Assembly: GCF_054482595.1 (NCBI RefSeq)
Contig: NZ_CM137008.1
Direction: 5' to 3' (one strand)
Length of the DNA stretch: 64,000 nucleotides
Under the pieces are notes generated by a model. It saw only the letters and a program-made list of their open reading frames with translations. It did not search any database and had not been told where the DNA came from. Of the stretch, positions 1,550-41,071 are shown piece after piece; positions within the stretch are counted from its first letter, which is position 1, and every line of letters begins with the position of its first letter. The translations under genes and the position numbers were made by a program.

Positions 1550-2254
1550 TTAACGGCGGTTGCCAAAAATTCGCAGCAACATCAGGAACAGGTTGATGAA
1601 GTCCAGATACAAGGTTAACGCGCCAAGAATGGAATATTTGCGCAGGTTCGACGCGTCGCGGGTATCTATCTGCTCACCCATATTTTTCAGTTTCTGGGTG
1701 TCATACGCCGTCAATCCGACAAAGACAATCACGCCGATATAGGTGACTGCCCACATCAACGCTTCGCTTTTCAGCCAGAAGTTGACCAGCGATGCCAGCA
1801 CAATGCCGATTAACGCCATAAACAGCATATTGCCAAAGCCACTTAAATCGCGCTTCGTGGTGTAACCGTACAGGCTCATTGCGCCGAACATCCCGGCAGT
1901 AACGACGAAGGTACTGGCGATAGAAGCAGCGGTATAAACAATGAAAATACTGGAAAGCGTAAGACCCGTCAGCGCCGAATAAAGCATAAAGAGCATCGTC
2001 GTTACACCTGCGCTCAGCTTTTGAATCATCGCTGATAACACAATAACCAATGCTAATTGCGCGATGATCAGACCGATTAAAAAGACACGGTTAGTGAACA
2101 ACAGCTCCATCACGGCCGCGGAATTAGCCGCATACCAGGCAACAAATGCGGTCAGCAACAAGCCAACGGTCATCCAGCCATAGACTTGCGCCATATAAGT
2201 CTGCAAGCCAGCCCGGGGTTGTACAATTGAATCAGAACGTGGGAATCTGTCCAT
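1550..2254 (-). CDS. ybhL: Bax-inhibitor-1/YccA family inner membrane protein YbhL (234 aa)
   Basis: ORF 1550..2335 trimmed to internal ATG (MDRFPRSDS...) giving 234 aa; 7-TM profile; lies downstream of moaE as in K-12. Confidence 0.7.
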   Translation of the reverse strand: MDRFPRSDSIVQPRAGLQTYMAQVYGWMTVGLLLTAFVAWYAANSAAVMELLFTNRVFLIGLIIAQLALVIVLSAMIQKLSAGVTTMLFMLYSALTGLTLSSIFIVYTAASIASTFVVTAGMFGAMSLYGYTTKRDLSGFGNMLFMALIGIVLASLVNFWLKSEALMWAVTYIGVIVFVGLTAYDTQKLKNMGEQIDTRDASNLRKYSILGALTLYLDFINLFLMLLRIFGNRR

Positions 2255-2389
2255 GACGATCTCCTGAAGATATAAGGAATATCTTAAGGATACTGCAAAA
2301 TGATGAGGCTGTGCATCGACGCAGCGTAAACGCATGTACTGAGCGGTGAAATTGCCGGACGCAGCGGTGCCTTATCCGGCTAACAAAAA

Positions 2390-2842
2390 CTACCAGCGTT
2401 TTGCCGCCTGCTGATCGCTCTCCCGAGCTTCGACCCAGCGGTCGCCCTCCGGCGTGGCTTCGCGCTTCCAGAACGGTGCGCGGGTTTTGAGATAATCCAT
2501 AATAAACTGCCCGGCTTCAAACGCACTGCTGCGATGCGCACTGGTGACACCGACAAAAACGATTTCATCGCCCGGCCATAATTCCCCGATGCGGTGAATC
2601 ACCGTGACGCGCCCCAGCGGCCAGCGGTTACGCGCTTCATCGACAATTTCTGCCAGTGCTTTTTCAGTCATCCCCGGATAGTGTTCGAGGGTTAATGCTT
2701 TGACGCTGTCGCCCAGGTTATGGTTGCGCACCTTACCGGTAAAGGTGACTACCGCACCGTCTTCGTCACGCTCCGCCAGCCACGGGTACTCTTCTCCTAC
2801 GCTGAACGGCTGCGGACCAACAACAATTTTGGTTTCTGCCAT
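2390..2842 (-). CDS. moaE: Molybdopterin synthase catalytic subunit MoaE (150 aa)
   Basis: 150-aa ORF immediately after moaD; size and operon position. Confidence 0.9.
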   Translation of the reverse strand: MAETKIVVGPQPFSVGEEYPWLAERDEDGAVVTFTGKVRNHNLGDSVKALTLEHYPGMTEKALAEIVDEARNRWPLGRVTVIHRIGELWPGDEIVFVGVTSAHRSSAFEAGQFIMDYLKTRAPFWKREATPEGDRWVEARESDQQAAKRW

Positions 2843-4103: not shown

Positions 4104-5093
4104 TTAGCCGCCAATGTACGATAAGTTTTGCGTAATACCGGTGTTGTTTTGATGCAGGAAATGGGTCTGTTTCTTCTCCCGCAGCGCCGCTGAAATACGC
4201 GCTTCCAGCACCTGTTGCTGGGTATCGTCTTCCAGCAGATCGCGCAGGTTAACGCCGCCTTCACCAAACAGGCAGAGATGGAGTTTACCAATGGAGGAAA
4301 CGCGCAGACGGTTGCAAGTGGCGCAGAAGTCTTTTTCATACGGCATGATAAGGCCAATCTCTCCGGCGTAATCCGGATGACAAAAGACTTGCGCGGGACC
4401 GTCGCTGCGTTGACGTAATTGGTGGATCCAGCCGCGACGCAGTAGCTCGTCACGCAGAACCTGACCAGAGATGTGATGCTTACGGAAGAGCTCGCTGCCC
4501 TCGCCCGTTTCCATCAGTTCGATGAAACGCAGCTGGATAGGGCGATGCTGGATCCAGTTCAGAAAGGTGTCGAGCTGGTGATGATTAACATCACGCATCA
4601 GCACGGTATTGACTTTGACCTTCTCAAAACCGGCCTCAAATGCAGCATCAATCCCTGCCATGACCTGGTTGAATTTATCCTGCCCGGTAATAGCGTGAAA
4701 CTGGCGGGCGTCCAGACTATCAACGCTGACGTTGATGCCAGTAAGTCCAGCATCGCGCCAGTTCGCCACATCGCGTTCCAGACGGTAACCATTGGTGGTG
4801 ACCGCTATCTGGCGAATAGCGTCGTTTTCTCGCACAGCGGCGATGATATCGGTAAAGTCGCGGCGTAAAGACGGCTCACCGCCTGTCAGGCGCACTTTTT
4901 CGGTGCCCAGACTGGCGAAGGCGCGCGTAACCCGGCGAATTTCATCGACGGTCAGAAAGCCTTTATTGGTGACGCCGCTCGGTTTGTAGCCATCCGGCAG
5001 GCAGTAGGTGCAACGAAAGTTACACACATCGGTAATCGACAGGCGCAAGTAGTAAAACTTACGCGCAAATGCATCAGTCAGTTGTGAAGCCAT
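4104..5093 (-). CDS. moaA: GTP 3',8-cyclase MoaA, radical SAM (329 aa)
   Basis: ORF trimmed to MASQLTDAF...; CNFRCTYC radical-SAM cysteine motif near N-terminus; 329 aa. Confidence 0.92.
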
Positions 5094-5240
5094 GTACACC
5101 TTTCCAGATACGGGAGGCGAAGTCATTTCTTCCTTCGCCCTGGTGGCAATCTTTACGAGCATTGTCACGGCCAAAGCACCATATCAGTTGACCCAGGTGC
5201 AGAGGCTAGAGTGTTTAGTGGTTAAGCCGATACTAGCGTG
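5094..5240 (-). ncRNA. moaA 5' leader, expected location of the Moco riboswitch
   Basis: Long untranslated leader upstream of moaA; the riboswitch is placed by established knowledge of the E. coli moaA leader, its conserved fold was not verified here. Confidence 0.35.
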
Positions 5241-5429: not shown

Positions 5430-6398
<969 letters not shown>

Positions 6399-26991: not shown

Positions 26992-27492
26992 TTATTCGCT
27001 CCCGTTATCGCAAGGTTCCTTCCGGTGGAAGTAATTCCAACCGTTCCACTTCGCCAACTGATTACCGCTACCAACAGGCATACGGTTTGGATAACCGGAC
27101 TTACATTTAGCAGCTTTTGCTCTGTCCATTGCAGACAGTTTGACGAGTCGCTCTTTCCCGTATCTGGCAGTGGTTATAAGTTTTGCAGACGCTTCCAGCG
27201 CATAATCTGGAGCAATGCGGCAGGCAAGGTTGAAAATGACGGCATTTATAGCGTTATTTGATAAGCCGTGCTCATCGCCCGGATCTGGAGCGACATCTGC
27301 ATCAGCAAAAATGTAGCCAACGTTGATCCCAGGTGACGCATCACCGCCAAGCCATTCAGCCATCATCATTTCAAGGTCGTTGACGCCGTCTTCCATAGAC
27401 TGCGGTTCGACATCGGTTAACGTGGCATTTGATGCCACACCGAGCTTACGTAATGCCGCAAGAACTAAATCACCCTTCGTTGTCAGGTTCAT
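26992..27492 (-). CDS. P22 gp4-like tail adaptor protein (166 aa)
   Basis: ORF trimmed to [33 protein letters not shown]..., parallels P22 gp4 (recalled). Confidence 0.75.
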
Positions 27493-27706
27493 CTGCTGCC
27501 GCCTTAGGTTTTCGACCAGGCTTTTTACGCTGTTTTTCTTCTGGCTCTGGCTCCGGCTCTGCAACATCCTTCAAAAGGTCATCAGGATGTGAAAACCAGC
27601 CAGCATCCAGATATTCCTGAAGCTCTTCGGCTTTCACGATTTCAAAGTCGTATCCAACGCCTTTCCATTTCTTCATGTCGCCATGACGAAAGATCATGTG
27701 TGTCAT
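27470..27706 (-). CDS. Small charged protein (78 aa) between coat and gp4
   Basis: ATG at 27706 with GGAGA RBS directly after the coat terminator; Pro/Glu/Lys-rich tail; overlaps gp4 start by 23 nt. Confidence 0.4.
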
Positions 27707-27718
27707 GCTTGTCTCCAG

Positions 27719-27743
27719 ATAAAAAAGGGAGCCGAAGCTCCCT
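27719..27743 (-). terminator. Rho-independent terminator immediately downstream of coat gene
   Basis: minus strand gggagc ttcg gctccc followed by tttttt. Confidence 0.7.
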
Positions 27744-27750
27744 CTGGTTA

Positions 27751-29046
27751 TCACGCGGTCTGGTTAGGCAGACCAACACCAATTGCCTCTGGTCGTACAG
27801 CACATGCTGAATACCACACAGCAATACGGCACTTACCAGACAGAGTGTTGATATCACCCTGCGTTGCGAAGATGCCGTTAACACCAATGCCAGGAATGCT
27901 GAAGGAAGACGTTTTCATACCAGCAAACAGTTCATGGGTTACCGGGATAGGCTGAGACAGCAGACGGATTGAGTCATCAGCCCAGAACACGTTAGCGGTG
28001 GTCGTTGCCACGTTCAGAACGTTTACCGGAGTGGTATCAGCAAGAGAGGTGTTTACGTTAGCGTAAGCCTTCTCTTCTTTTGTCAGTGACGCGTCATCCA
28101 GTGCAATCGGTTTCGGCGTGATTTCGATGTGAGTACCATCGATCACACGGGTGATTGAGAAAGTCGCATCATCAGTCAGCACGTTCTTCGCCATCTGAGA
28201 CAGGAATTTCACACCAGTGAAACTGATTTTGTCGCCGCGCTTAAATCCGGTGGTGGAGGATACGGTCACCGTTGCAACACGGTTGTCGACGTTCTCTTTG
28301 TTACCATCGGTATCAAGGGTGTATGCCTGCGGCTTAAACTTCTGCGCACCAGAAACAGTTACACCAGTAGCGGTTGACTTGGTAACTGCCGGAAGTTTCG
28401 GTGAGCGAAGAATTTCATCAAAGCCAGCAATCTGACGCTGAATAGTACCGTTGTGATACGCATCTTCAGGAACGCGCCCGAAGATGTCACCATCTACAAG
28501 ATTGCGGCCTGCTTTGCGGTAATCGTCAGGGTTCAGGAAGTAACTGATACCCATGTCGCGGTTGAGTTCGCGGGAGAACATCAGTCGCTCTGCATCAGAC
28601 ACAAAATCCCAGCCAGACAGGCCAGTAGATGGACCAATTGCGCGGGTATCGTGAACAACAAGTGAGCCCATTTCGGTTGCCTGTTTGGCAATTGCTGACT
28701 CAATGTTATTCGCCAGTTTTTTGGCGGATGCCTGGATGCGGCGACGGTAAGAACGCTCATCACGCAGGTCATCTGCACGAAGCTCGAAGAAATCGTTATC
28801 CGGATCGCCCATGTTGCACTTCACGGAGAGTTCCAGAATCCCGGTTGCGTTGCCAGTTAAATCCCAGCCAGTCTGGGTTGGCGCTTCCTGCTCAACAGGC
28901 ATCCACACGGTGTTGCTTGAACGCTGCATGGATTCTGCCGGAGGGGTGTATTTTGTCACTTTGGACGCCATTGGCGTCAGGTTCTGGACGGTTTCGATGA
29001 TTTCATCCAGAGCATACGTGACCAGTTGACCTTCATTTAATGCCAT
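27751..29046 (-). CDS. P22-type major coat protein gp5 (430 aa)
   Basis: [54 protein letters not shown]... parallels P22 coat protein throughout (recalled). Confidence 0.9.
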
Positions 29047-32136: not shown

Positions 32137-33636
32137 TTAAGTTCTCCGTGCGATGGGCCTGATTGGGGCTGGTATCTTTTTCTCTTTTGGTTTTTTGATG
32201 TCGCGCATCATTTTGGCGAAGCGGCGCATCATGTATGCATAGCGAACAGCTGAGAGAACGTCGTCGTTAAGCTTGACGATTTTCCCGTTTTCATCACGGT
32301 GATAGAGGCGGAACTCCTCAAAGAATGGCTCACAGGTGTTGAATACTTTGAAGCGACCGTCGAGCATCATGTCTCGCAATTCAGTGATGCCAGGCTCAAC
32401 AGCATTACCGCCATCAGGCCATGTCGCATGCTCCTGCAACATCATAAATCCAGCGTCTGCATACTGCCCTTTGAGCTGCTCACCGCCGCCCTTCTCGTGC
32501 TGGTTTCCGTCATGAGGCCATGCTGTTGGCACTTTATGCGCCCATGATTTAACCGCTCCCCATGCCTGAACGGCTGTTTTTTCTTTCGCCTTCCACACGC
32601 GTGAAACGTAGATTGTGTCTGCGTCCTTATCCCACCAAATCTGAACCTGCGCCTGCGGGTGATCCCATCCGAAATCCATCCCGCCAATTACGTAGAAGTG
32701 ATCAGGACACTCGAACGGCTGACACTTAATCGTCTCTTCCGGTATCTGGAAGATTCGACCACTACCCATCGTAGGAATACCGCGAGCACGCGCCTCTCTC
32801 TCATGCTCAGGATAGGATGCGATGATTTGCTCTTTCTGCTCGTCGGTATAGTGCTCAGCGTCATAGATGGTCATGTTGACCACTTTCTGCGACTTGCTGG
32901 GATTCTTCAGGAACTTGGTAACAACGTCAGACATCCCCATCAGCGGGGTAAATGTCAGAATTGAGAATTGCCCGTATTTGTTGGTACGGGTAAGACCTTC
33001 GCCATAAATGCTGTATGGTGGCTCTTCGTCAAACCACACGCCGTGGATTGTGTCACCCTGCCAGCGAGCACGGCCTTGCGAGTATGGCTTGAAGTAGCAG
33101 ATTGAAATGCCATCTTCAACGCCATCAGCCGTGTGATGCTTAACCAGAAGATGATCAACAAGGTTCGGAAAGAAAGGAGACTTCTTCCAGCTAATGATGT
33201 CTTCTTTCGGTATGGAACCGTAGCCAGGCTCATCATTCTCTTCGATACGACCGCACAGGATGCGTTGAGTCGTTTTGGTTACAGTCTCGTTTGTCTCTCC
33301 ACCAATCCAGAAGACAACAGGCTCATAGAAACGCTTACCTTTCCACTCACCGCCATATTTACCATCAGCAGGATAGCCTTTTGTGCCCGGATAACGACCG
33401 GTAAGGTGAAACGCGACTTCAGCAGCACCAGTAAATGACTTACCAAGCTGGTTACCAGCCATAAAACATCGCTCTGGATAGTCATGCCCGGCGTCGATGA
33501 ACTCACGCTGCTTGCTGTATGGCGTAAATTCATATAGCAGGTGTGTGTTCCGGTAGTTCTCTTCTTCTTCGAGTAGCTCGAGCAACTCGATTTGCTCTTC
33601 GTCGCTCAGGTTATCAAGAATCGCGTCCAGTTCCAC
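32137..33636 (-). CDS. Terminase large subunit, P22 gp2-like (499 aa)
   Basis: 499 aa; ATPase and nuclease domains; position between terS and portal. Confidence 0.88.
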
Positions 33637-34102
33637 GGTTGAATAGCTCCTTGATACGAGAGCGCCGCTTATCGCGATCTCCCTTATCAGGTGTCACGTC
33701 TTCAACTTGCGACTGCTCTTTGAGGCCCAAATCACGGGCGATGATGTTAGCGTTGAGAAGGTCAGCGGCTGCGCCAGAGAATTTCTGGTCGTAGATGACC
33801 TGTTCTGCTCGCGTAACGACTTCAGATAAATCTTCTCGCAGGCGATATGTGCGCCATGTTTCAAGCGTCACATCAATGAACAGAGTGAGGCCGGTAATGG
33901 TCATCGCTCGCATCTTGGCGATAGGCTCTTGTATTACTTCACCCTGATACGAGAACGCCTTCATCTCCCATAGCGGGTTAGCTTCCACCCACTCGAAGTA
34001 TTCACAACAAGCAGCCCACAGCGCCTCAGGCGATTCGAATTTAGGATTTCGCCCATGACTACTGCGGGCCTCCCAAAATCGGTTGCCCTTTGGTGCTGCC
34101 AT
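33614..34102 (-). CDS. Terminase small subunit, P22 gp3-like (162 aa)
   Basis: [55 protein letters not shown]... matches P22 gp3 as recalled. Confidence 0.88.
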
Positions 34103-34790: not shown

Positions 34791-35226
34791 AACCTCGTCT
34801 AGTTGTTCGTCATAGATTCAGTGGCTGGCGGTGACGATTCCGCTTTTCGGGAGCTACCCTAGCCACTGTTTTATTCTATCCGATGTCTTTCCATCAGTCC
34901 GCCACCACAAAGAATCTTTTTTGCCATAAGGCAGGAGGTTCATCTTTCAGTGGCTGCCAGTGTTATTTCCCCACCTACTGGCTTGGGTTGTTTCGCTGTA
35001 CTGCCGTAACTGGTTGCCCAGAATAAATTCCGGTTTCATTATCAAGCCCACCCGTAGATAGGCTTTGTAATGAACCGGCTCTTATCTCAACGCAGCCCCT
35101 TACCGCGCGCCAGATGCTCAATATCAAGCATCAGCAATGAGATGTTTAATCTGGATTCACTCCAGAAGTGATCACCACCCTGTCTACAGAGCCAGATGTG
35201 AAGGATGATGAGTAAAATTATCGCTA

Positions 35227-35664
35227 TCATCGAAGGCATTGCGTCCTGATGTATTCCTGCAGGTAGTCAACCTGCGCGGTTATCCTGTCGATTCCACTTC
35301 GGAGACGGTAATAATTGAGTTCAGCATCTGCTGTAAGTCTTGGGCTTTCTCCATTGCCCATGCCGCTGGCTCCGGTCGTTGACTTTGCACAGGTGGCGGC
35401 GACTTGCAGGCGCTTACGACCAGCAGAAACATCAGCACGGAGACTTTCGATAGTCGCGTTAGCATCAGCAAGCTCCTTTGTGTATCTGGCGTCAAGTTCT
35501 GCTACATCACGTTGACGCTTCTGCATGTCAGCGATTGTGGATGTGGCTTTATCACGTTGCTCTTTGTAGGCGATGGCGTTATCACGGTAATGATTAACAG
35601 CCCATGACAGGCAGACGATGATGCAGATAACCAGAGCGGAGATAATCGCGGTTACTCTGCTCAT
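35227..35664 (-). CDS. Rz: i-spanin Rz (145 aa)
   Basis: [31 protein letters not shown]... N-terminal TM plus coiled coil, lambda Rz-like. Confidence 0.88.
35280..35465 (-). CDS. Rz1: o-spanin Rz1 lipoprotein (61 aa), embedded in Rz in +1 frame
   Basis: [20 protein letters not shown] lipobox followed by Pro-rich segment; fully inside Rz. Confidence 0.8.
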
Positions 35665-36980: not shown

Positions 36981-37469
36981 CTATGCTACATGTTTAATTT
37001 TCTCTACACGTTTCCGGTTTTTAAACGCACTATCCAGAACTGGGTAAATCATAAACAACGAAGCATTGAGGATTTCGTCAACTTCCCGGCGACAGGTTGC
37101 GAGCGATGGTTTTTGAATACGCCCGCCGCCCCGGCATAACATCTTGCGAGGTCTTGCGACACGATGATAGTAAGATGCAATGGCATGCTTGGAAGATCCA
37201 TGAGCGTAGTAGCTGAGGAGGATGCCAAAGGCTTTCTTGTCAATGCACATGACGGAATCGACGACCTGAGAAATCAACATTCCATCATCATCATTACACA
37301 TTGGCCTTGTCATAACTCTTCCCGGCTCTACGCTCTCCATGAACTTCGCTATTACGCTGCTCATGCGCTTTTCCAGGCGACCTGAATAAACCCATGCGCC
37401 CCACAGTTCAAGCCAGCCATTCAGCCACTCGTGCTGTTCTTTGGTGAGGTTTAGTTCTCTTATGCTCAT
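36981..37469 (-). CDS. Q: Late-gene antiterminator Q (162 aa, short Q21-like type)
   Basis: Position after ninH and upstream of the S holin with a 536-bp pR'/qut-type gap; Cys/His-containing translation. Confidence 0.6.
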   Translation of the reverse strand: MSIRELNLTKEQHEWLNGWLELWGAWVYSGRLEKRMSSVIAKFMESVEPGRVMTRPMCNDDDGMLISQVVDSVMCIDKKAFGILLSYYAHGSSKHAIASYYHRVARPRKMLCRGGGRIQKPSLATCRREVDEILNASLFMIYPVLDSAFKNRKRVEKIKHVA

Positions 37470-39701: not shown

Positions 39702-40547
39702 TCATGCCGCATCCTCAAAATTAAATCCAAGCTGACATGAAAATGCTTCACATGATTCAGAACACGAACCTGAATCATACTGTCGCATTGATGTCATTCT
39801 TGAGGCTAACTCATCTCTTGATATATCACTAAACAAGGCAATCAGTGATTTAAGTGTATTATTCCCTCGATACATAACCGGTTCCTTTCCTGTTTTTATT
39901 TCTGTATCAAGGATGTTGATAAATGCATCTGCAAGTTCTGGCTCATCCATGGCTGCCAGCGCAACCTTTTGCATACTTTTTTTTATACAGAAAACACAAT
40001 TACCAAGATGCTCCTGTATGCCAAGATCAAACTTCTGCCCACTCCACCAATCAAGCACATCCTGTTTTTCAAAATCGCTTATATCAGCCAGGTACCGAAA
40101 ACCATTAGCCCTTTTAAGCCTGTTTGGTTCATCTGTGCGAATGCCAAGCCATGTGATGTAATTTCCTTTCCCAAACTTTTCCTGACAATATTTGGTGAAT
40201 GGAACAGACTTCATTCTGTCGGTACAGAACGCACCGCCGATATATGGATGTCCGTATTTATTTAACATCCTTTTCCACGGTATAAGATCTGGACCAATAT
40301 CATTGACACCTATCTCTTCATAACTACTGGCCTTCCCCATTTCTGGATTAGGTATTACACGAAGGCAATGTAAGTCTATTTTCCAGTTACTGACGATATT
40401 TCGGATGAACTCATATGTTTTAGGGTGCTCTGCCCCTGTATCCATGAAAACGTAATGCACGTCTTCACCTGACTGTCGCTTTTGCTCCATTAGCCAGAGC
40501 AAATATGCTGACGTCCTGCCACCTGAGAAACTAACGACATTTACCAT
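39702..40547 (-). CDS. PAPS reductase-like protein (NinC/Orf290 family, 281 aa)
   Basis: ORF trimmed to [22 protein letters not shown] (SGGxxS PP-loop-type motif). Confidence 0.7.
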
Positions 40548-41071
40548 GCAGCCCTCCTGACGCCCTGCCCGATCGCCATCAATGCCGCTTTGGATACGGT
40601 AGTAAACATCCGTCGAGGACTGATGAACGGTCGCCAAATCAGCAGCATGGAGCCTTTGCTGTTTCCCTTCTTCTCCAGCCCTGTCGATGGTTCGATAAAA
40701 TTAATCCGTCCATCAGTGATGATGCGAACTTCGTCAATACTCTCCAGAGCCTTGCTGAACCATCCGACAGACATATCCTCTGGCACAAGCATCACTACCG
40801 TCTGTCGCTGTTGTATGCACTGCTCAGCGGCTTTTTCCACCCACGGCCTGATATTGCTGTACGGTGGGTTATTCCAGATTGCACCGTGGCTTATCCACTC
40901 AGAATTTAGCGCGTCGTCGGCCTCAGTTAACCAGTGAGCGCACAGAGCATTTTTGTCGCTCGCTGCCGAATCCAGCCAGAATCCAAACTCAATATCCAGT
41001 GCATCAAAAAGCCAAAGCGGCGTTTGCCAGCAGTCCTTGTCGTGTGCTGGCGTATTTGATTTGATAGTCAT
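40541..41071 (-). CDS. Phage DNA N6-adenine methyltransferase (Dam family, 176 aa)
   Basis: ORF trimmed to MTIKSNTPAHDKDCWQTPLWLFDAL...; catalytic NPPY motif; start overlaps ninB stop (ATGA). Confidence 0.75.
   Translation of the reverse strand: MTIKSNTPAHDKDCWQTPLWLFDALDIEFGFWLDSAASDKNALCAHWLTEADDALNSEWISHGAIWNNPPYSNIRPWVEKAAEQCIQQRQTVVMLVPEDMSVGWFSKALESIDEVRIITDGRINFIEPSTGLEKKGNSKGSMLLIWRPFISPRRMFTTVSKAALMAIGQGVRRAAW

Follow-up and report, generated by a model that had tools for sequence, protein, structure and literature searches.

A terminator-like stem-loop and an orf69-family gene at the coat-to-gene 4 junction of a P22-like prophage late operon

The window analysed here, a stretch of 64,000 nucleotides from contig NZ_CM137008.1 (NCBI RefSeq assembly GCF_054482595.1), carries on its minus strand the junction between a phage coat gene and a homologue of P22 gene 4. 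The features of this junction are collected in Table 1. On the same strand, the small open reading frame (ORF) that occupies the junction is preceded by genes encoding a Q antiterminator, holin, Rz, the small terminase gp3, the large terminase, portal, scaffold and coat. We interpret the region as the standard coat-to-gene 4 junction of a P22-like prophage late operon, holding two known elements, and place the probability of this interpretation at roughly 80%.

An earlier, sequence-only reading of this DNA had described a hairpin and T-run near 27719..27743, with the core stem starting 8 nt past the coat stop, then GGAGA and an ATG, and a small ORF whose 3' end overlaps the gp4 start by 23 nt. 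All of these features were found where that reading had placed them. The ORF was also of the 78-aa length given for it, but the description of its product as rich in Pro, Glu and Lys did not hold for the whole protein, since this composition was limited to the C-terminal third (residues 49-78). A 94-aa version of the ORF that would start at GTG 27754 was unsupported, because all homologues start at the equivalent of ATG 27706.

Table 1. Features of the coat-to-gp4 junction and its surroundings (positions in the window).
Feature	Position	Strand	Details and basis
Coat (major capsid) gene, P22 gene 5 homologue	29046->27751	-	431 aa; Pfam PF11651 P22_CoatProtein, 2.8e-165
Coat stop codon TGA	27753-27751	-	Sequence
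't coat' stem-loop, intrinsic-terminator-like	27724..27745	-	9 pairs, 5 GC (terminator scan)
Stem-loop core	GGGAGC 27742-27737; UUCG loop 27736-27733; GCUCCC 27732-27727	-	
Outer stem, three A-U/G-U pairs	Extends to 27745/27724	-	Sequence
U-tract TTTTTT after stem	27721..27726	-	Sequence
Shine-Dalgarno GGAG	27713..27716	-	6-nt spacer to small-ORF ATG 27706
Small ORF	27470..27706	-	78 aa + stop; phrog_1175; BLASTP to P22 orf69
Small-ORF start and stop codons	ATG 27706; TGA 27472-27470	-	Sequence
N-terminal folded domain, residues 1-46 (predicted)	27569..27706	-	AlphaFold2; invariant G36-W37, P41
(GAGCCN)3 hexanucleotide repeat encoding (Glu-Pro)3	27542..27559	-	Length-variable spacer
Basic tail, AT-hook-like, predicted disordered	27503..27535	-	pLDDT 55-61
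Small ORF/gp4 overlap	27470..27492	-	23 nt, ATGAACCTGACAACGAAGGGTGA; sequence
gp4 ribosome-binding site TAAGG, within small ORF	27506-27502	-	Sequence
gp4 homologue (head-tail adaptor / tail accessory factor)	26992..27492	-	166 aa, ATG 27492; Pfam PF11650 P22_Tail-4, 1.1e-58; phrog_637, 5.9e-67
Q-family antiterminator gene	36981-37469	-	PF06530, 1e-24; upstream of coat

The junction is already known from other phages: the reference records of P22 and Sf6 annotate it, and the genome papers on epsilon34 and phage L take it up. In the sequence-only reading, genes 5 and 4 of P22 had been held to have no gene between them; the P22 record (NC_002371) annotates both a stem_loop (6102-6119) and orf69 (6135-6344) at that place, and orf69 (NP_059631) overlaps gene 4, which starts at 6328, by 17 nt. 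The product of orf69 fell into the same PHROG family, phrog_1175, as the window protein (E = 4.5e-31 for orf69; E = 2e-37 for the window protein, residues 1-76 of which aligned to profile positions 1-72 of 72). The two proteins aligned over their full length by BLASTP (32% identity, 72 columns, E = 7e-11) and had the motifs GW-HP-LL and GRKPKA in common. On these comparisons the small ORF is almost certainly a homologue, in its short allelic form, of P22 orf69 and epsilon34 gene 6.

In P22 and in the window the same elements follow in the same order: the coat stop, a hairpin with a GC-rich stem, a tetraloop and a T-rich tail, then GGAG, the small ORF and the overlap with gene 4. The two junctions differ in that orf69 encodes 69 aa without a (Glu-Pro)n repeat, whereas the window ORF encodes 78 aa; the overlap is 17 nt in P22 as against 23 nt, and the stem reads GGGGC/GCCCC instead of GGGAGC/GCUCCC. 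The two coat genes fall within one Pfam family but are of different subtypes. In Sf6, a post-coat 'stem-loop that is likely to be a transcription terminator; t coat' is annotated, followed by gene 6 (NP_958182), which encodes 61 aa ending in a basic tail, KRGRKAADNG, and overlaps the gp4 homologue. Unlike the window protein, Sf6 gp6 belongs to PHROG 3251 and lacks the GW N-terminal domain; its correspondence is one of position, with no demonstrable homology.

Further counterparts are epsilon34 gene 6, ST104 orf54, SE1Spa orf56 and BTP1_006, which lie at the same locus and have the same kind of N-terminal domain and a C-terminus made of a spacer plus basic tail. They are long forms with a 98-aa WDGH domain, whereas the window carries the short form. 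Villafane et al. 2008 described the epsilon34 gene 6 family as variable in length and not essential in P22, and the P22 version as an internally deleted form of the long gene (PMC2629481). It is for P22 alone that the gene has been reported to be dispensable for plaque formation (PMC2629481, which cites Eppler et al. 1991). Literature searches on P22 orf69, the WDGH domain, the PHROG and Pfam families and the BTP1 locus tags returned nothing relevant.

The small ORF had many relatives. In a large protein collection there were 334 homologues at E<=1e-3, all named 'hypothetical', from E. coli, E. albertii, E. fergusonii, Salmonella and Klebsiella. The 361-bp region was present in 216 of the 5426 complete genomes of E. 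coli, and in those listed the ORF is called by PGAP as a hypothetical protein. Polymorphism was examined in 75 loci, namely the window and 74 IMG/VR loci with gp4 at least 98% identical; the gp4-alignment search gave only loci at or above this identity, and more distant loci were retrieved singly. The reading frame was intact in all 75, and the overlap with gp4 was 23 nt, free of polymorphism, in 74 of 74 loci.

The distribution of substitutions differed along the gene. Over codons 1-48 of the short allele there were 18 synonymous and 8 nonsynonymous variant codons, and 20 of the 27 changes fell at third codon positions, giving a pN/pS of about 0.10 (26.3 synonymous and 117.7 nonsynonymous sites); the value for the long allele was about 0.25. 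Judged from this polymorphism, the amino-acid sequence of the N-terminal domain is under purifying selection. The 15 tail codons just upstream of the overlap had 3 synonymous versus 7 nonsynonymous variants and look relaxed by the same measure.

The N-terminal domain could be recognised across genera. Among 1.84 billion cluster representatives, 496 matched a profile built from the first 50 residues at E<=1e-3, and roughly one in three of the 150 best matches were multi-repeat proteins that have only the short motif in common with the family. Across 60 diverse members the G36-W37 pair was invariant and P41 nearly so. A homologue lies between the coat gene and the P22_Tail-4 adaptor gene in Proteus phage V3 and Pseudomonas phage PfAn1, and the order coat, small ORF, gp4 was also seen in P22, SPN9CC and BTP1. 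All six distant metagenomic members were directly upstream of a P22_Tail-4 gene, with a P22_CoatProtein gene upstream in the four loci that reach far enough. The exact fit to gp4 varied elsewhere, from the 17-nt overlap of P22 to a 4-nt overlap or a 2-3 nt gap in several others. Conservation of the reading frame in related phages had been proposed as a check on the ORF, and the ORF was present in all relatives examined. Taken together, the frame, codon and gene-order data indicate that the small ORF does code for a protein; a ribosome-binding site of its own precedes it.

The post-coat hairpin folded at -14.9 kcal/mol for 29 nt, compared with -6.1 +/- 2.4 for shuffled sequences (z = -3.65), and 1 of 200 shuffles was as good. 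It was the best of 11 terminator-like matches between 24 and 34 kb, and the sole strong match on the minus strand from the Q gene (~37 kb) to the variable region (~19.9 kb). The element combines a G+C-rich stem-loop with a directly following U-tract, on the transcribed strand and in an intergenic gap, and is on these grounds a predicted intrinsic terminator. No Rfam family matched in the region at the gathering threshold. A model with an extended stem that would partly sequester the ribosome-binding site of the small ORF was dropped, as such a stem is absent from P22.

The hairpin was conserved at two scales. In the 73 near-identical loci whose upstream flank could be read, all 12 bases of the core stem were constant; changes were confined to the flanks, the T-run and the loop, which read UUCU three times and UUAG twice. 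After the coat stop, the window, P22, SPN9CC, BTP1, Sf6, Proteus V3, PfAn1 and two metagenomic loci (L091 and L095) all had a GC-rich hairpin closed by a tetraloop and followed by a T-rich tail, and a third metagenomic locus (L093) had a long hairpin without a T-run, so that 8 of the 9 diverse relatives with a hairpin carried the T-rich tail. The stems themselves differed in sequence among relatives (GGGAGC/GCUCCC, GGGGC/GCCCC, GAGGGGC/GCCCCUC). In an alignment of eight hairpins, 93.8% of cells were paired and 2 of the 6 pairs had changed on both sides (5 cells); the covariation score exceeded that of all 500 shuffles, a result that, with only 8 sequences, is supporting evidence and not proof. 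The GGAG ahead of the small ORF was kept in P22, SPN9CC, Proteus V3 and PfAn1.

AlphaFold2 predicted that residues 1-46 of the small protein form a beta-hairpin (2-14 and 17-25), a helix (26-34) and a short helix (41-46), with pLDDT 85-90 for residues 1-40, lower values beyond and a disordered tail. No structural or sequence relative of known function was found for the N-terminal domain. The 78-aa protein had no match in Pfam, NCBIfam or PADLOC, and sequence searches of the PDB with the long allele and with the N-domain profile gave chance matches only. The N-domain motif V..eEl..YL..GW recurs 3-10 times in GIY-YIG/HNH/NUMOD3 endonuclease-like proteins and in secreted Firmicute proteins. The similarity between the N-domain and the endonuclease-like repeats covered 21 columns (hhalign probability 96%), and its test is partly circular, the repeats having been chosen by the same profile. 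We regard this motif similarity as real, and as a lead, not evidence of function; a function was not assigned from these repeats because the similarity extends over 21 columns only and the contexts are mixed.

Between the N-terminal domain and the tail lies a hexanucleotide repeat (TRF period 6, 3.7 copies, 27540-27561). The number of (Glu-Pro) units ranged from 1 to 12 among loci with gp4 at least 98% identical, a length variation typical of slippage; each unit is 6 nt, so the frame is never broken. The repeat is annotated as a repeat_region in the APC_JM3.2 record.

The tails of the family varied in kind. An AT-hook-like core stood at the tail position in 20 of 81 family representatives, where shuffled tails would lead one to expect 0.21, and 11 of these 20 had the canonical RGRP (for example, PRRGRPPKVKE). 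At least five Lys or Arg residues were present within the last 25 residues in 52 of the 81, and other members ended in an HeH-like 'LGIKVDGRW..L..AI' or a 'GKTRK' motif. The window tail, K-K-P-G-R-K-P-K, has no canonical AT-hook RGRP and no Pfam match. Part of its conservation, that of P-K-A and of the final N-E-G, is forced, because the gp4 ribosome-binding site and the conserved N-terminus of gp4 overlap these codons. Since varied endings of nucleic-acid-binding type occur on the same N-terminal domain, DNA binding by the tail is proposed as a possibility, to which we give appreciably less than an even chance.

A second, long allele occupied the same slot in 19 of the 75 loci, the other 56 carrying the short one. 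It encodes 195-203 aa, belongs to phrog_3769 and corresponds to ST104 orf54, SE1Spa orf56 and BTP1_006. Its N-terminal domain was 34% identical in amino acids and 45% in nucleotides to that of the short allele, and a 98-aa WDGH domain (PF25311, 1.3e-39) stood between this domain and the same (Glu-Pro)n spacer and tail. The alleles diverge between operons that are otherwise almost identical, and the 5' part of the gene is thus swapped as a cassette; this swap of short and long alleles is the length variation remarked on by Casjens. The WDGH domain was predicted with a pLDDT of 96, and a Foldseek search with the model gave no PDB neighbour at E<1. It is thus a confidently predicted domain with invariant Asp and His residues and no solved relative.

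The sequence-only reading had offered two views of the small ORF, a small moron or an artefact. That it is a chance open frame or an annotation artefact could be argued from its shortness, its low-complexity C-terminus and its absence from the annotation of some records, such as that of IME10. Against this stand the phrog_1175 match, the 334 homologues, the third-position bias of the polymorphisms, the intact frame in every close locus and the PGAP calls in E. coli; the artefact view is refuted by these conservation data, and its likelihood is negligible. That it is a moron, acquired and expressed independently between coat and gp4, might be argued from the lower G+C content of the N-terminal domain (0.438, compared with 0.49-0.51 in the flanking genes; 0.477 for the whole ORF, 0.538 for the tail, 0.511 for coat and 0.493 for gp4). 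It might also be argued from the exchange of the N-terminal part as a cassette, with alleles of 45% nucleotide identity beside a gp4 at least 98% identical and a near-identical coat 3' end, and from the terminator just upstream. However, a promoter scan found no promoter-like (sigma-70-like) minus-strand site upstream of the ORF, which also lacks a terminator of its own, its last 23 nt lying within gp4. The present-or-absent pattern of a moron was not seen either: the gene was in all 75 close loci and in every P22-like genome examined, only its allele varying, and the same position was filled in P22, Sf6 (by the analogous gene 6), epsilon34, BTP1 and the Proteus, Pseudomonas and metagenomic P22-like phages. 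The morphogenetic cluster has been described as free of morons other than the ant moron (PMC2629481). With purifying selection on its product as well, the small ORF is very unlikely to be a moron.

The remaining alternative concedes that the ORF is translated and holds that it matters only as a leader, delivering restarted ribosomes to gp4 while the peptide itself is functionless. In every case the ORF ends next to or within the start of gp4, and it has the gp4 ribosome-binding site embedded in it; its tail codons look relaxed and the gene is non-essential in P22, all of which would suit such a role. Selection on the N-terminal domain at a pN/pS of about 0.1, the recognition of that domain across genera with its GW invariant, its confidently predicted fold and the existence of related alleles with a whole extra WDGH domain are not expected of a pure leader. 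We consider this explanation improbable, although less so than a moron, and prefer to see in the small ORF an orf69-family gene whose protein product is maintained.

The hairpin had been described as ending the coat transcript. This description was not upheld: gp4, gp10 and other virion genes lie downstream and, as no promoter-like site was detected before the small ORF, gp4 and the later genes are expected to be transcribed through the hairpin. Intrinsic terminators in lambdoid late operons are read through by Q-modified polymerase. In phage T7, the terminator T-phi follows the major capsid gene 10, and essential genes downstream need read-through; T-phi is the classical analogue of a stem-loop terminator placed right after the most highly expressed structural gene. 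Stem-loops also follow the major capsid genes of lambda and HK97, and the P22 record notes that its own stem-loop is 'similar in location to stem-loops in phage HK97 and phage lambda'. T7, lambda and HK97 differ from the present case in using other polymerases and antitermination systems, and their sequences are unrelated to it.

For P22 and phage L the late operon is known or thought to have a single promoter (PMC8022706). Phage L has the same intra-operon terminator, and either partial termination or a block of transcription without gp23/gp24 antitermination has been suggested for it (PMC8022706). In the window, the entire operon would probably be transcribed from one late promoter by a polymerase antiterminated by the Q-family protein, and with such Q-modified transcription of the whole operon the hairpin most likely does not end transcription. 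We infer three roles for it that may act together. It could stop polymerases that are not antiterminated, it could pass only a fraction of late transcription, and it could shield or stabilise the scaffold/coat message upstream at its 3' end. In each of these roles it would favour coat, of which a virion has hundreds of copies, so that coat would be made far in excess of gp4, gp10 and gp26, with about a dozen copies each. A regulatory role of the hairpin, tuning or insulating downstream expression, is somewhat favoured.

Downstream of the hairpin, the small ORF would give a fresh site of translation initiation. Because it overlaps gp4 by 23 nt and contains the gp4 ribosome-binding site, ribosomes are probably handed on to gp4; on the strength of this layout, we regard translational coupling of the two genes as evenly balanced. 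The protein itself is best seen as a non-essential accessory factor, in which the 46-residue N-terminal domain is joined through the slippage-prone (Glu-Pro)n spacer to a basic tail of AT-hook-like character that is predicted to be disordered. Its dispensability in P22 speaks against a core role in assembly. With low confidence, the protein could be imagined to tether DNA to a partner that acts at the head-completion step.

Extended to the whole orf69/gene 6 family, this idea describes a modular DNA tether in which the GW N-terminal domain would dock an assembly partner, the spacer would set the reach and the C-terminal modules would hold DNA, the locus also serving for the exchange of accessory domains, WDGH among them. 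As the adjacency of the genes is invariant, gp4 or portal would be the obvious docking candidates. This proposal is speculative, and we think it rather unlikely to be correct as a whole. The parts to which it refers are a spacer that is either a length-hypervariable (Glu-Pro)n or a coiled-coil, and C-terminal modules of AT-hook, HeH-like and GKTRK type that are interchangeable.

For the P22-like phages, this analysis serves to correct two points, in that genes 5 and 4 of P22 do have a further gene between them and that the small ORF at this position is not a moron. The orf69/gene 6 family emerges as the only gene within the P22-like head-completion cluster that is universally conserved but dispensable. 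To what was already known of it are added the purifying selection acting on its GW domain of 46 aa, a (Glu-Pro) repeat that varies between 1 and 12 units, the recurrence of AT-hook or HeH-like tails, and the exchange, as a cassette, of short and WDGH-containing alleles between near-identical operons. These details offer handles for experiments on the coat terminator under Q/gp23 antitermination and on the function of the gene.

The GAGCCN repeat in the small ORF at the coat/gp4 junction, which encodes the (Glu-Pro)n spacer of the product, ranged from 1 to 12 units across prophages that share 98% or higher identity in gp4. This microsatellite within a structural operon is hypervariable and preserves the reading frame. 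Variant small-ORF proteins were also recovered from public genomes (P0001, P0121, P0124 and P0146); one variant copy carried an internal duplication of 13 aa, and several frameshifted versions had no tail.

In 19 of 75 sequences (within the L010-L089 set; the window is counted among the 75), the gene occurred as a long allele that encodes 195 to 203 aa and includes a WDGH domain (PF25311). The D, H, R and WDGH residues of this domain were invariant and resemble a metal site. Modelled with AlphaFold2, the domain reached a pLDDT of 96; a Foldseek search with this model returned no PDB neighbour at E<1. Stand-alone WDGH domains were also present in Listeria A511-like, Bacillus, Streptococcus and Klebsiella jumbo phages.

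Coordinates of the features, with locus handles for those in related phages
Feature	Location	Strand	Details
Moco (molybdenum cofactor) riboswitch	window 5081-5225	-	RF01055, 104.5 bits
GAGCCN hexanucleotide repeat	window 27542-27559; same site in L010-L089 (IMG/VR loci)	-	encodes (Glu-Pro)n
Small terminase gene, gp3	window 33614-34102
int-alpA RNA motif	window 34807-34869	-	RF02996, 42 bits (gathering score 35.8)
Rz lysis gene	window 35227-35664
311-aa ORF	window 39702-40637	-	PAPS_reduct domain match, 2.6e-08
Long allele, P0193			same gene as small ORF
Long allele, BTP1_006	L098 (BTP1) 1801-2361		same gene as small ORF
HNH endonuclease gene	L002 (Louie) 556-1083
Gene 4 as annotated	L004 (IME10) 2033-2638		201 aa
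gp4 as annotated	L003 (APC_JM3.2) 2139-2639		labelled 'recombinase RmuC'

The Moco riboswitch showed that the window is an E. coli-like bacterial chromosome harbouring a P22-like prophage. Within the late operon, the int-alpA RNA site was flanked by the Rz and gp3 genes. The prophage's nin-like region contained the PAPS_reduct ORF, which adjoined homologues of NinX, an antirepressor (ANT/KilAC), YbcO and RusA.

In the close relatives Louie and Dewey, the scaffold and coat genes were separated by an HNH endonuclease gene of opposite orientation; in contrast, the window had no such insertion, and the scaffold stop codon overlapped the coat start codon at base 29046. Two relatives carried annotation errors. 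In the IME10 record the small ORF was omitted and gene 4 was begun at an upstream start inside it, while the gp4 product of APC_JM3.2 was misnamed.

A profile search with the N-domain (residues 1-46 of the small ORF product) identified proteins bearing repeats of its motif, V..eEl..YL..GW, including P0125, P0133, P0136, P0164 and P0201, among others. The motif occurred in 3 to 10 repeats both in GIY-YIG/HNH/NUMOD3 endonuclease-like proteins and in secreted proteins of Firmicutes that carry Cu_amine_oxidN1 domains. V..eEl..YL..GW appears to represent an undescribed repeat module.
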